This document shows positions 1-4,196 of a stretch of DNA of 9,209 bases, piece by piece. Position 1 is the first letter of the stretch, and every line of letters starts with the position of its first letter. The position numbers and the translations under genes were made by a program. The notes beneath the pieces were generated by a model. That model ran no database searches. It had not been told where the DNA came from and saw only the letters and a list, made by a program, of their open reading frames with translations. This stretch comes from a virus (taxonomy: Duplodnaviria; Heunggongvirae; Uroviricota; Caudoviricetes), in IMG/VR virus record IMGVR_UViG_2923307698_000010; one strand, 5' to 3'.

Positions 1-327
1 ATGACTAAAAATACTCGTTTTTCCCCTGAAGTCCGTCAACGGGCAGCCCGTATGGTTCTGGAAAGTCAGGGCGAATATGACTCACAATGGGCGACAATTT
101 GTTCCATTGCTCCAAAGATTGGCTGTACGCCGGAGACTCTGCGTGTCTGGGTTCGCCAGCATGAGCGGGATACCGGGGGCGGTGATGGAGGGCTCACCAC
201 CGCTGAACGTCAGCGTCTGAAAGAGCTGGAGCGTGAAAATCGTGAACTGCGCCGCAGTAACGATATCCTTCGCCAGGCTTCCGCTTATTTTGCGAAGGCG
301 GAGTTCGACCGCCTCTGGAAAAAATAA
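1..327 (+). CDS. IS3-family transposase OrfA (HTH DNA-binding subunit), IS629-like
   Basis: 108-aa ORF with an N-terminal HTH and a C-terminal leucine-zipper-like segment ([27 protein letters not shown]); ends in the A-rich frameshift window. Confidence 0.93.
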
Positions 328-1214
328 TGCCGCTGCTGGATAAGCTGCGTGAGCAGTACGGGGTCGGACCGCTATGCAGCGAACTGCATATTGCCCCGTC
401 AACGTATTACCACTGTCAGCAACAGCGACATCATCCGGATAAACGCAGTGCCCGTGCGCAGCGCGATGACTGGCTGAAGAAAGAGATACAGCGCGTATAC
501 GATGAAAATCACAAGGTATACGGTGTGCGTAAAGTCTGGCGTCAGTTGTTACGGGAAGGTATCAGAGTGGCCAGATGCACTGTGGCACGTCTCATGGCGG
601 TTATGGGACTTGCCGGTGTTCTCCGGGGTAAAAAGGTCCGCACTACCGTCAGCCGGAAAGCCGTTGCCGCATGCGACCGCGTAAACCGTCAGTTCGTGGC
701 AGAACGTCCAGACCAGTTGTGGGTGGCTGATTTTACCTGGGTAAGCACATGGCAGGGCTTCGTTTATGTGGCGTTCATCATTGATGTGTTCGCCGGATAC
801 ATCGTGGGATGGCAGGTCTCATCATCCATGGAAACAACATTCGTGCTGGATGCACTGGAGCAGGCGTTGTGGGCCCGTCGGCCGTCCGGCACAATCCATC
901 ACAGTGATAAAGGTTCTCAGTATGTATCGCTGGCCTACACGCAGCGGCTTAAGGAAGCCGGATTACTGGCATCAACAGGGAGTACTGGCGACTCGTATGA
1001 CAACGCGATGGCGGAGAGCATCAATGGTCTTTACAAAGCGGAGGTAATACACCGTAAGAGCTGGAAAAACCGTGCAGAAGTGGAACTGGCCACACTCACG
1101 TGGGTGGACTGGTATAACAATCGACGATTGCTGGAAAGGCTGGGCCATACTCCCCCGGCAGAAGCAGAAAAAGCTTATTATGCTTCCATCGGAAACGATG
1201 ATCTGGCAGCCTGA
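327..1214 (+). CDS. IS3-family transposase OrfB (DDE catalytic domain), IS629-like
   Basis: 295-aa ORF in the -1 frame relative to orfA, starting in a TAATG overlap. Shows the DDE/rve integrase-core signature (…WVADFTW…HSDKGSQY…DNAMAES…). Confidence 0.93.
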   Translation: MPLLDKLREQYGVGPLCSELHIAPSTYYHCQQQRHHPDKRSARAQRDDWLKKEIQRVYDENHKVYGVRKVWRQLLREGIRVARCTVARLMAVMGLAGVLRGKKVRTTVSRKAVAACDRVNRQFVAERPDQLWVADFTWVSTWQGFVYVAFIIDVFAGYIVGWQVSSSMETTFVLDALEQALWARRPSGTIHHSDKGSQYVSLAYTQRLKEAGLLASTGSTGDSYDNAMAESINGLYKAEVIHRKSWKNRAEVELATLTWVDWYNNRRLLERLGHTPPAEAEKAYYASIGNDDLAA

Positions 1215-2133
1215 GTTCACAGATAAAACACTCTCCAGGAAACCCGGGGCGGTTCAGGTCTTCGCGTTTTTCGGTGTACGTGCTGACGGACGGCGATAAG
1301 CGCAGGGAAAGCTCATCCCATTTTTCCCGCAGCTTCGACGGGCTGAGCACGTTACGGCACCAGAACGGATCGCGACTGACGCGGCTGTACATCTCGCAGA
1401 TTTGTTTATGAGTACGACCATCCTGCACACACATCAGGCGAATTTCGTTTGCCCAGGCTGTCCAGTTCGGTTCTTTGGGACGAACCACCTCGCCGTCACA
1501 TTCGGCGGCATGCTCGTACAGGGCGATGATTTTTTTCCAGAGCCACTGTGCGCAGGTCAAATCATCCTGCGTCCCCCACTGGCGCTTTTTAGGGCTGAAT
1601 ACAACCGCATCAGGATGGCGAGTTAAAAAATCCTGTTCAGCCGTCTGCGTGTCCGGTTGCGAAGAGTCCGGACGAGAAGGTTTTTTATCTGACGGATCAT
1701 GTTTTGATTTTACTGACGGATCCCCGCCAGATTCTGACGGGTGAAAACCCGCTTTTTTGCCAGATTTCGACGCATCAAATTTTGACGGGTCAGATTTTGA
1801 TGCGTCAGATTTTGACGGGTCAGAATCTGACAGTTGAGAAAATGCCGCTGCCTGAAGCTTCGCAACGTTAAGCTGATAAACATTCGACGCATTGCGGTTA
1901 CCCTGGCGACGCGCCTTACGCGTTAACCAGCCTTCTGCTTCCAGCCGTGCGATAGCCGTTCTGACGGTACTCATCCCCGCGCCAATCTGGCGGGCAATGG
2001 TTTCAATCGATGGCCAGCACACACCTTCGTCATTACTGAAATCAGCCAGGCGGGCCATAATTGCCACGCTGGATAATTTCATGCCTGACGCTGCGCAACC
2101 ATCCCATACATAGCCGGTTAATTTAGTGCTCAT
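1096..2133 (-). CDS. Lambdoid replication initiation protein (O-like, N-terminal HTH); 3' end fused into IS629
   Basis: ATG at 2133-2131 with a GAGG ribosome-binding site upstream. N-terminal HTH (…SIETIARQIGAGMSTVRTAIARLEAEGWL…) and an acidic/Ser-Lys linker encoded by the iterons. The ORF crosses the IS boundary at 1257/1256, so the last ~53 codons (1256-1096) are IS-derived and not native. Confidence 0.8.
   Translation of the reverse strand: MSTKLTGYVWDGCAASGMKLSSVAIMARLADFSNDEGVCWPSIETIARQIGAGMSTVRTAIARLEAEGWLTRKARRQGNRNASNVYQLNVAKLQAAAFSQLSDSDPSKSDASKSDPSKFDASKSGKKAGFHPSESGGDPSVKSKHDPSDKKPSRPDSSQPDTQTAEQDFLTRHPDAVVFSPKKRQWGTQDDLTCAQWLWKKIIALYEHAAECDGEVVRPKEPNWTAWANEIRLMCVQDGRTHKQICEMYSRVSRDPFWCRNVLSPSKLREKWDELSLRLSPSVSTYTEKREDLNRPGFPGECFICELRLPDHRFRWKHNKLFLLLPGEYGPAFPAIVDCYTSPPT
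1217..1256. repeat. IS629-like right terminal inverted repeat
   Basis: Sequence GTTCACAGATAAAACACTCTCCAGGAAACCCGGGGCGGTTCA lies immediately after the orfB stop; its reverse complement begins TGAACCGCCCCGGG, the remembered IS629 terminus. Exact boundary may be off by 1-3 bp. Confidence 0.7.
1687..1833. repeat. Iteron array (putative prophage replication origin) inside the replication gene
   Basis: Five contiguous ~15-bp tandem units at 1761-1833 (CAGATTTCGACGCAT / CAAATTTTGACGGGT / CAGATTTTGATGCGT / CAGATTTTGACGGGT / CAGAATCTGACAG), plus three dispersed CTGACGG(A/G)T copies at 1687-1742. Mirrors lambda ori lying within gene O. Confidence 0.6.
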
Positions 2134-2142
2134 GACCGACCT

Positions 2143-2481
2143 CTATTTCCCTGAATTTACGACGAAACTGTTCGAGCGGACTGAAGCACTCATGCTCATA
2201 GCCTTCGCGGAGGTAGATAACCCGTTGTGTTTCCGGTTCCCAACGAATGACTCTGACGGGCACTCCGTAGTGATCTTTGAACCAGCGGTTAACTTGTCGC
2301 AAAGGACTGTCTCCTTCTGCCGGTTGAAATCCCCCACAGCCCACTCTGCAAAGCTGTGGGTTACAATTTCCCTGTCACCTGGTACATTCACTGCATAGCA
2401 ATATTCCACCTTCGCTTTTCCACCCGGTACAGGAAGCGCAATCAGTTGCGAGCGACGGTAGTGTGTTGTTAAACTGTTCAT
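2143..2481 (-). CDS. Hypothetical early-right protein; 3' third probably out of frame (see frameshift finding)
   Basis: ATG at 2481-2479 overlaps the stop of the upstream CII-like gene (ATGA coupling) and has a GGAGA ribosome-binding site. After ~codon 50 the amino-acid and codon usage deteriorate, while the -1 frame (ORF 2123-2344) looks coding and ends 11 nt inside the rep start. Confidence 0.4.
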
Positions 2482-3047
2482 GCGTTAGTTTCTCCACAAC
2501 CAGAAGCAATCGACGCCACGACGCCCGGAGCTGCACACTCGCGGGCGTCATTACTTTCTGAAATGCAAAAGATTTTGTAGACCAGTGCTGCATGCTCCTG
2601 CAGCTTCGAAATTGAGAGATACAGCTCGTCGTTAATTGCTGTCTTCTCATGCGGTTCCACTACACCGTCTTCGATTGCTGAACGAATCTGTTTTGAATAA
2701 CTGCCGATCTGTTCAATGACTTCCAGCAGACGCTGGTTAATATCGGCGTTGTCCACATCCTCGACGTCAGGAAGCGACACAAAGACGCCATTTGCAGACT
2801 GCGCCACAGCATCAGCAATGAAGTGAGTGCCACCAGCACGCTGTAAAACCATTGCCCATCCCAGCGGGAAAATCTGATCGCCATCTGCACGAAGGCGGTT
2901 GAATAAAGCGTTTTCTGTTACATCGAGCCAGTCAGCCGCTTCAGCGTAACCACCCGGCAACGCCGCGATAGTTTTTCTGACAGCTTTCACGTACCACTCA
3001 GGCTGTTTTTCTATTTTCCAGTGATGCTTACCCACGATTAGCCTCAT
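2478..3047 (-). CDS. CII-like lysogeny regulator (YdaT / phage CII CP76-type), HTH plus coiled-coil
   Basis: 189-aa ORF directly downstream of the cro-like gene. N-terminal HTH-like segment ([22 protein letters not shown]) and a helical C-terminal half. An alternative GTG start at 3035 has a better GAGG ribosome-binding site than the ATG at 3047. Family assignment is from memory. Confidence 0.65.
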
Positions 3048-3369: not shown

Positions 3370-4044
3370 ATGAAAACAATCCATGACATCCGGCGGTCTA
3401 ACGCCAGAAAACTGAGAGATGGTGTTGGAGGGAATTCTTCCTTTGCCACTATGATTGATCGCGAGCCAACCCAGACCAGCAGGTTTATGGGAGATGGTGC
3501 TACTAAAAATATCGGTGACAGCATGGCACGACACATCGAAAAATGTTTCGACCTGCCTGTCGGATGGCTCGATCAAGAACACCAGACAACGAACATCACA
3601 AAAAAACCTGATGTTTCAATCACTAATAAACAAATCACATTAGTCCCTGTCATATCATGGGTACAGGCCGGAGCATGGAAAGAAGTTGGATATTCTGAGG
3701 TTGATTTGAGCACAGCAGAAACGTATCCCTGCCCTGTACCCTGTGGGGAAATGACTTATATCTTGCGGGTGATAGGTGATTCAATGATTGATGAGTACCG
3801 CCCGGGAGACATGATTTTTGTCGATCCTGAAGTACCTGCCTGCCACGGTGACGACGTTATTGCATTGATGCACGATACAGGTGAAACCACCTTCAAAAGG
3901 TTGATAGAAGATGGGACACAGCGTTATCTCAAAGCGTTAAACCCAAACTGGCCTGAGCCTTACATTAAGATCAACGGTAATTGCTCTATAATTGGAACTG
4001 TGATTTTCTCAGGAAAACCAAGAAGATACAAAATCAAAGCCTAA
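3370..4044 (+). CDS. CI-type prophage repressor with C-terminal LexA-like S24 autopeptidase domain
   Basis: 224 aa. N-terminal HTH region, an Ala-Gly candidate cleavage site (VQAGAW), a Ser nucleophile in the GDSM motif and a downstream Lys (FKRLIEDG), as in LexA/lambda CI. Confidence 0.88.
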   Translation: MKTIHDIRRSNARKLRDGVGGNSSFATMIDREPTQTSRFMGDGATKNIGDSMARHIEKCFDLPVGWLDQEHQTTNITKKPDVSITNKQITLVPVISWVQAGAWKEVGYSEVDLSTAETYPCPVPCGEMTYILRVIGDSMIDEYRPGDMIFVDPEVPACHGDDVIALMHDTGETTFKRLIEDGTQRYLKALNPNWPEPYIKINGNCSIIGTVIFSGKPRRYKIKA

Positions 4045-4083: not shown

Positions 4084-4117
4084 TTGACAATGTACCTATG
4101 AGATACATAATGTACCC
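4084..4117 (+). promoter_or_regulatory. pL-like sigma70 promoter with operator repeats (oL-like)
   Basis: TTGACA (4084-4089), 16-bp spacer, CATAAT (4106-4111). Overlapped by direct repeats AATGTACC (4089-4096 and 4109-4116) and the inverted repeat ATGTA-N9-TACAT (4090-4108), the same TGTAC core as the oR palindromes. Confidence 0.55.
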
Positions 4118-4196
4118 AAGAGAAACAACAAACAGGCAGGACGCCCACGAAGTAGCCGCCTGGGGCATATGAAGTCCAGGATGATTCGTTAGCAAC

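Follow-up and report, generated by a model that had tools for sequence, protein, structure and literature searches.

A candidate replication origin in the interdomain linker of a lambdoid prophage initiator gene

In phage lambda, whose origin lies inside gene O and comprises four iterons and an AT-rich stretch, and in Stx phages with six iterons, the origin is found midway along the initiator gene, within the part encoding the interdomain linker (PMC7466680). The 9,209-nucleotide stretch of DNA analysed here (the window; IMG/VR record IMGVR_UViG_2923307698_000010) covers the early region of an E. coli/Shigella lambdoid prophage and carries an array of short direct repeats at the same place in its own replication-initiator gene, rep. 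The initial annotation of the window had proposed that these repeats form an iteron-type origin embedded in the initiator gene. Comparative evidence (codon constraint, an AT-rich stretch, modularity and an O-like C-terminal domain) supports this proposal, and we consider it likely, with a probability of about 0.8, that bases 1677–1835 or thereabouts are the replication origin of the prophage.

The lambda-like arrangement claimed by the annotation was recovered: the order N-terminal domain (N-domain), iterons, AT-rich stretch and O-like C-terminal domain (C-domain) is the same, the imperfectly palindromic repeats are followed by the AT-rich stretch in the direction of transcription, the C-domains are homologous, and the initiator is encoded in the early operon after cII-like genes. 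The number of iterons varies among relatives, as it does among lambda and the Stx phages. In contrast to lambda, the N-domain of the window's Rep belongs to Pfam family HTH_36 and not to Phage_rep_O, the repeats are 12-nt cores in a contiguous 15-bp period instead of iterons of 18–19 bp spaced at 20–24 bp, a P-like gene is absent after rep in intact relatives, and the AT-rich stretch reaches 70% A+T rather than the 80% of lambda. Judged from its sequence, the locus is a candidate lambda-type origin of iterons and an AT-rich element with a different (HTH_36) initiator N-domain, and as such a further example of the textbook arrangement.

Phage L, P22 and lambda carry different iterons inside their initiator genes; gene 18 of phage L has six imprecise 11-bp repeats (TGTCCAACGGA), and its origin was only inferred (PMC8022706). 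The gene 18 initiators of P22 and phage L resemble the Rep of the window in being lambdoid proteins distantly related to O, with short in-gene repeats of their own at an inferred origin, but they belong to other protein families, have other repeat sequences and are encoded beside a DnaB-type helicase (gp12). In iteron plasmids (RepA, pi, RepE), winged-helix initiators bind direct-repeat arrays next to an AT-rich unwinding element; the plasmid iterons are usually about 19–22 bp long and lie outside the rep coding sequence. No homology of the window's Rep to iteron-plasmid Rep families was detected, save for a weak, sub-threshold hit to the RP-C N-terminal domain (E = 0.0055). The oriJ/YdaU system of the Rac prophage was considered as a counterpart and rejected: YdaU of MG1655 is a DUF1376 protein, whereas the Rep of the window combines HTH_36 with an O-like C-domain. 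The genome paper of phage SfIV names only a 'replication module', and no published description of the present origin was found in the literature searched.

Repeat array and AT-rich stretch

Tandem Repeats Finder placed a repeat at 1761–1824 (period 15, 4.3 copies, 81% match, consensus CAGATTTTGACGGGT), with a second call at period 30 (2.1 copies, 88% match). A repeat search extended the identical 15-bp register to 1835 and found one more copy ending at 1742. The five contiguous direct repeats of about 15 bp that had been annotated inside the rep open reading frame (ORF) were thereby confirmed at 1761–1835, with CAGATTTTGACGGGT as the consensus of the + strand; the units start at 1761 (CAGATTTCGACGCAT), 1776 (CAAATTTTGACGGGT), 1791 (CAGATTTTGATGCGT), 1806 (CAGATTTTGACGGGT) and 1821 (CAGAATCTGACAGTT). 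Three partial copies had been reported upstream of them. One of these is a nearly perfect sixth unit (1728–1742, + strand, CAGATTCTGACGGGT), one base off the consensus; the other two exist but are more aptly treated as a pair of their own, spaced by 24 bp.

On the coding (−) strand, repeat and core searches resolved the array into five tandem iterons of 15-bp period at 1759–1830, with 12-nt cores at 1819–1830 (TCAGATTCTGAC), 1804–1815 and 1789–1800 (both TCAAAATCTGAC), 1774–1785 (TCAAAATTTGAT) and 1759–1770 (TCGAAATCTGGC). The sixth iteron, at 1726–1737 (TCAGAATCTGGC), lies within a near-invariant block described below; it agrees with the 11-bp palindrome TCAGA-A-TCTGA over its first ten bases and departs from it at the eleventh, a G. 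With up to two mismatches allowed, the core TCAAAATCTGAC matched the coding strand six times in 1726–1830, and only one further match was found in the 9.2-kb window, counting either strand. The internal dyad TCAGA-W-TCTGA is complete in the first unit (TCAGATTCTGA) and present at 10 of 11 positions in the sixth, and the inner units (TCAAAATCTGA) keep four of the five symmetric pairs. The repeats thus share internal dyad symmetry with the lambda type, on a site shorter than lambda's imperfect inverted repeat of 19 bp. Rather than the 15-mer as such, two paired 5-bp half-sites (TCTGA/TCAGA) probably make up the functional unit. The + strand carries a terminator-like hairpin, antisense to rep, in the gap that separates the sixth iteron from the tandem array (1738–1751; CGGGTGAAAACCCG followed by CTTTTTTG); its stem is weaker in most relatives, whose coding strand reads GGCGGTTTTGACCCG.

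The repeats are housed in the minus-strand ORF 1096–2133, the translation of which contains ...SQLSDSDPSKSDASKSDPSKFDASKSGKK...; the repeats themselves encode ...SDSDPSKSDASKSDPSKFDASKS..., the repetitive Asp/Ser/Lys linker that the annotation had described. Only 1257–2133 of this ORF is rep, which corrects the ORF call; bases 1096–1256 are read-through into an IS3-family insertion sequence (IS), and the called ORF is a rep–IS chimera. The six units (1726–1830) correspond approximately to codons 102–136 of 313, between the winged-helix domain (1–98) and the C-domain (160 onward). Origins of the lambda type likewise have four or more similar repeats midway along the gene, between the parts encoding its two domains.

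A candidate for the adjacent AT-rich unwinding element, which the annotation had suggested looking for, was found next to the repeats. The AT-rich stretch at 1677–1716 (not strand-specific), a candidate DNA-unwinding element, has the highest A+T content of all 40-nt windows of rep (0.70), which is the 97th percentile for the whole window. It adjoins the iterons on their downstream (C-terminal) side, as in lambda, where the same 40-nt measure applied to gene O peaked at 0.80 in the known AT-rich region. Family-wide, A+T content is 0.70 in the 12 codons that follow the GGDPS block and 0.96 at their third positions, compared with 0.42 in both domains.

The AT-rich stretch overlaps a near-invariant block of 66 nt (1681–1746, − strand; family consensus TTTGACCCGTCAGAATCTGGCGGGGATCCGTCAGTAAATTCAAAACAAGATCCATCAGATAAAAAA), which encodes FHPSESGGDPSVKSKHDPSDKK in the window; the columns CAGAATCTGG were identical or nearly so in all 26 aligned relatives. 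The block includes the pair of direct repeats 24 bp apart (1683–1722, − strand), each headed by the Dam site GATC: GATCCGTCAGTAAAA from 1722 down to 1708, and GATCCGTCAGATAAAA from 1698 down to 1683. As the annotated partial copies, the two repeats measure 15–16 nt at approximately 1684–1699 and 1708–1723, with CTGACGGATC in common and GATCCGTCAG(T/A)TAAAA on the coding strand. Only one other GATC occurs in the whole rep gene besides those at 1695–1698 and 1719–1722. The Asp codons at the two sites were GAT in 67/67 and 58/58 relatives, while GAC and GAT are used equally elsewhere, and the GATC-headed pair with its 24-bp spacing was also found in two diverged subfamilies (L090 and L091). The two sites could be a control point for SeqA or methylation. 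No DnaA boxes were found in 1600–1900, and their count across the window was at chance level.

Nucleotide-level conservation and modular inheritance

When the 98 residues of the N-domain were used as a protein query, most of the matches were short fragments or fusion proteins. The comparative set was drawn instead from a scan of one genome per bacterial species, which yielded 80 loci with the same N-domain, 67 of which were distinct and usable. These 67 relatives span Escherichia, Citrobacter, Klebsiella-group genera, Yersinia, Pantoea, Rahnella, Proteus and Providencia, and their N-domains were 69–100% identical to that of the window; a few further loci were only 34–41% identical. Copy number among relatives, a comparison that the annotation had left to be made, ranged from 2 to 8 units, and the repeated linker was present in 67 of 67.

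The family matrix of the unit, built from 291 units picked by protein motif, reads TCA AAA TCT GAC nnn. Third codon positions were conserved (92% A, 78% A and 86% T) and held 1.2–1.5 bits of information, compared with 0.3–0.9 bits in the fifth codon, which is hypervariable (CCG, GCA, GCG, ACA, ACG, GGG, GTA, CGC, CAC, GAG and others). In the codon listing of the relatives, the serines of the unit were nearly always TCA and then TCT, and the lysine was AAA. Overall, linker serines used TCA (51%) and TCT (34%), whereas AGC leads in both flanking domains, and linker lysines were 97% AAA, as opposed to 59–63% in the domains. Since the fifth codon is hypervariable while synonymous positions are kept, the DNA is conserved where the protein is not. 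Sequence comparison thus indicates a nucleotide-level constraint on the repeats that extends to synonymous sites and leaves one encoded residue free.

The constraint extends into the 22-codon block after the array. In pairwise comparisons of the 67 relatives, positions with the same amino acid had the same codon at a rate of 0.90 in the block and of 0.43 in the N-domain; in pairs with less than 80% N-domain identity, the rates were 88% and 39%. Entropy at the three codon positions was 0.33, 0.43 and 0.52 bits in the block, compared with 0.46, 0.25 and 1.37 bits in the N-domain, and many codons of the block were fixed at 100% (for example, GAT 67/67, GTA 66/66 and TCA 62/62). An overlapping gene was rejected as the cause of the synonymous constraint; only the rep frame was open in 67/67 relatives, and the next best frame in 34/67. 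Linker residues 103–157 were predicted to be disordered in an AlphaFold model (predicted local distance difference test score, pLDDT, below 50), which leaves little reason at the protein level for such conservation. The dual constraint proposed by the annotation, on a protein linker and on an array of DNA sites, appears lopsided: as the predicted-disordered segment coincides with the origin DNA, it would mostly be a DNA constraint on a permissive linker.

The repeats are co-inherited with the N-terminal half of the initiator, as in the lambda type. In Citrobacter phage phiNP, this N-domain and its repeats are combined with an unrelated C-domain (Phg_2220_C). Conversely, phage mEp460 has the C-domain and tail of the window's Rep with an unrelated N-domain and, at the same linker position, its own repeats of 23-bp period followed by an AT-rich run. 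The modules join where the origin region ends, near window position 1691, and at least three unrelated C-domains follow the same linker among the relatives. These exchanges indicate that the repeats are inherited with the N-terminal DNA-binding domain independently of the C-domain; the mEp460 case in particular shows, at the level of sequence, that the N-domain and its repeats swap together as one specificity module. In mEp460 itself (L004:3426–3602), the N-domain gave no Pfam hit, and about six 23-bp repeats (CAyTTTGACCCGATG) precede the AT-rich run, apparently constituting a second, undescribed origin specificity.

Within the HTH_36 family, the repeat unit covaries with the recognition helix. 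The helix STVRTAI is found with the unit TCAAAATCTGAC, ESTVKSAI with TCAAATTTTGACCC, STVIGLI with CCAGAAACTGAA, STVTTAI with TCAGAATCTGAG and STVITAI with TCAGATTCCGAA; all five subfamilies have the 15-bp period followed by the same GATC block. The linker peptides differ among subfamilies (SKSDx, SESEx, PETEx, SNFDP), while the 15-bp period and the pattern yCA-rAn-nyT-GAn are kept. The N-domains of only 34–41% identity (Psychrobacter, Thorsellia, Phlomobacter, Thermomonas, Zooshikella) have different direct repeats just after the N-domain. In these distant HTH_36 initiators (loci L078, L080, L081, L082 and L084), the repeats measure 18–25 bp and occupy codons ~90–140 of each rep; the Thorsellia initiator, for instance, has five copies of GGGGTGTCACAGTGACAC at 22-bp spacing. 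The origin-in-linker layout seems to be general for this domain family.

Alternative explanations and proposed mechanism

The repeats might bind Rep, or another phage or host protein, for regulation instead of initiation, by autorepression, as a roadblock to early transcription, or by titration or exclusion of superinfecting phages. Conservation of the DNA and its covariation with the N-domain indicate that a protein reads the DNA and do not specify the consequence; truncated forms with the N-domain retained occur in many prophages, and cloned lambda ori/O fragments are reported to interfere with related phages (PMC3349717). Regulation would, however, leave the conserved AT-rich element (third-position A+T 0.96) without an obvious role in repression, and the elements agree with lambda ori in position and order in every respect. 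A non-exhaustive search of the relatives' replication module turned up no other candidate for the origin. On balance, we regard a purely regulatory array as unlikely.

A low-complexity, flexible Ser/Asp/Lys linker generated by replication slippage, with no role of the DNA, would typically show a unit of exactly five codons, a variable copy number (2 to 8) and predicted disorder, all of which were observed. Slippage accounts for similarity within a genome, but not for identical codons across genera whose N-domains are synonymously saturated (0.90 vs 0.43). The most variable positions are moreover nonsynonymous (the fifth codon, and S/K/D replaced by P/E/T in subfamilies that preserve the DNA pattern), and the downstream block, which is not repeated, is even more conserved. 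This makes slippage as the sole cause very improbable.

We give equally little credence to the possibility that the conserved nucleotides form a structured RNA in the early transcript or hairpins in single-stranded DNA, such as a priming signal. Single strands of the window did fold better than shuffled sequences (z = −5.75 for the sense strand, −4.56 for the + strand), as did those of 23 relatives, a third of the loci (median z = −4.8, vs −0.3 for N-domain controls). In an RNAalifold analysis of 26 relatives of equal length, by contrast, the covariation term was 0, a compensatory change was found in only one of 24 pairs, and the consensus structure differed from the single-sequence fold, with no structure common to the relatives. 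The repeat region had no Rfam match; the only match in the window was the ALIL frameshift pseudoknot of an IS3 element (282–398, 119 bits). The self-complementarity of the region follows directly from its alternating inverted half-sites TCAGA/TCTGA, and extrusion of hairpins at an origin would be compatible with the origin reading too. Finally, the block could be a recombination junction between exchangeable modules that spread recently by horizontal transfer without selection on the sites, as modules are indeed joined at its distal edge (near window 1685–1691 in mEp460 and phiNP) and the same linker leads into at least three types of C-domain; this is extremely improbable, because the variation is position-specific (residues after GGDPSV vary freely while neighbouring synonymous positions are fixed), which recent spread of the whole segment does not predict, and because diverged subfamilies keep the block.

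Several points weigh against an origin at this site. The sequences used in the conservation tests are linked by descent and horizontal transfer, and no phylogenetic-model correction was applied. In some relatives, the units number no more than about two or three. The contiguous 15-bp spacing is shorter than the 20–24 bp of lambda, and plasmid iterons, at roughly 22 bp, are also longer than this period. The AT-rich stretch is weaker than that of lambda over 40 nt (70% vs 80% A+T). No P-, DnaC- or helicase-like gene was found downstream of rep in intact relatives, and no binding or replication data for this initiator family were found in the literature searched. The tight spacing and the absent P-like gene are two departures from lambda.

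For the array as an origin, Rep binding, unwinding, helicase recruitment and initiation can be outlined by analogy. The winged-helix N-domain of Rep would bind the six 15-bp-spaced iterons (core TCAAAATCTGAC). One reading of the array is a series of 5-bp half-sites, TCAGA/TCAAA and TCTGA, which alternate in orientation at distances of 6 and 9 bp; the three unconserved nucleotides of the hypervariable fifth codon could be the uncontacted centre of a dimer site. The bound array would form a nucleoprotein complex comparable to the lambda O-some, which would destabilize the adjacent AT-rich stretch of 36–40 bp with its two GATC-headed repeats, and the lambda-O-like C-domain would bring in the helicase-loading machinery. 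As no P-like gene follows rep in the relatives, the later steps of the lambda mechanism cannot simply be transferred.

More speculatively, and with low confidence, the array may be a continuous lattice of alternating inverted 5-bp half-sites (TCAGA/TCTGA, at intervals of 6 and 9 bp) that supports head-to-head and tail-to-tail polymerization of the winged-helix domain, and in prophages like this one a Rep stripped of its C-terminal effector tail by an IS or a deletion, with its N-domain intact, may be retained together with the array as a replication-interference (exclusion) device against superinfecting phages with the same origin.

Initiator protein and genomic setting

The N-terminal winged-helix DNA-binding domain, the presumed reader of the iterons, comprises residues 1–98 (1840–2133, − strand). 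It matched Pfam HTH_36 (PF13730; E = 4.7e-11, residues 23–70), and GntR, HTH_29, PaaX and DnaD_N were also returned by Pfam for Rep. The AlphaFold model places helices at residues 43–50 and 54–66 and a beta wing at 70–73/85–88. The best Foldseek matches were MarR-type and other winged-helix proteins and were weak (E about 3e-3). Among solved structures, the N-domain resembled only MarR-type winged-helix proteins, and weakly so, by sequence (E about 0.008) and by fold; the C-domain yielded no match. Pfam gave no Phage_rep_O match, and BLASTP against lambda O produced no alignment in the N-domain.

The C-domain (1257–1656, − strand; residues ~160–292) is homologous to the C-terminal, P-interacting domain of lambda O. 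BLASTP of SfIV Rep against lambda O gave E = 1e-25 and 30% identity over 216 residues, strongest for residues 175–277 against 180–270, and the model shows a confident helical domain (pLDDT 85–97 for residues 170–280). The intact SfIV Rep was assigned to PHROG 391, 'replication initiation O-like' (E = 1.6e-135). In the window, the C-domain is cut short, without the conserved tail ...VDYSQIPAGFRG. Reps of the SfIV/mEp460 type and of the phiNP Phg_2220_C type have in common the tail ...(D/N)VDYSxxPxxGFR(G/S) at their extreme C-terminus (L001:3936–4000, with equivalents in L002 and L004). As the C-domains of these Reps are otherwise unrelated, the tail may be a short motif through which a shared partner docks.

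The rep gene of the window (1257–2133, − strand) encodes residues 1–292 of 313, and its 3' end is gone. From 1257 on, it is 99–100% identical at the DNA level to rep of Shigella phages SfIV/SfII and Escherichia phages PhiR29/PhiR49, and homology to intact rep genes and IS-free E. coli prophages begins exactly at this base. An IS3-family element occupies 1–1256 (+ strand) in the 3' end of rep and is cut by the edge of the window, as indicated by its transposase domains, the pseudoknot and the break in homology; its orfA (1–327) matched Pfam HTH_Tnp_1 and its orfB (327–1214) rve/HTH_21. Its terminal sequence is presumably similar to IS629/IS1203. The insertion takes away exactly the shared tail: the last 21 residues, including VDYSxxPxGFRG, which is conserved even among Reps with different C-domains, are lost. 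With these residues missing, the Rep copy in the window is probably not functional, and the origin is probably a relic unable to fire from its own initiator.

The region 1257–9209 matches prophages of many E. coli genomes at 99.8–100% identity, and these prophages have intD, ymfK- and ymfL-type genes. A cI-like S24 repressor gene (3370–4044, + strand) is followed just downstream by a tandem 20-bp unit present twice (AATGTACCCAAGAGAAACAT, 84% match; 4089–4127). The divergent operon encodes a YdaS/cro-like protein, a CII/CP76-like protein (2478–3047, − strand), a small ORF and rep, which is therefore in an early, pR-type operon downstream of cro- and cII-like genes. Gene order around rep is the same in SfIV. 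In the intact relatives, the gene directly downstream of rep encodes not a P-like helicase loader but a PerC-family protein (L001:3445–3939, which is SfIV_42; L089:2493–2960; L087:945–1439), followed by LexA-like, methylase and RusA genes; in the window, the IS masks this position.

In other prophages, deletions fuse the first ~79–80 residues of Rep to the terminase large subunit (e14 YmfN-like, 455 aa) or to RusA (138 aa); these cases comprise the E. coli loci L055 and L075 and proteins P0045–P0055. A 15-kb circular e14-like element carries a Rep relative (L088). The plasmid matches of the module are prophages in large replicons or excised e14-like circles and are uninformative on self-sufficient replication.

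The window itself represents a prophage replication module that was probably disabled through insertion of an IS. For the family, to which more than 2,300 related proteins in the database belong, the analysis provides a concrete candidate origin that would serve a broad group of temperate phages and prophages of enterobacteria, including SfII and SfIV, which convert Shigella serotypes, PhiR29/PhiR49 and many E. coli prophages. It also offers an unusually clean natural case of DNA-level selection overriding protein-level selection within a coding sequence. Because synonymous sites are fixed while the encoded residue is free, the family may be useful as a positive control for methods that seek functional elements embedded in genes, and it is a warning against recoding or 'codon-optimizing' such initiator genes.

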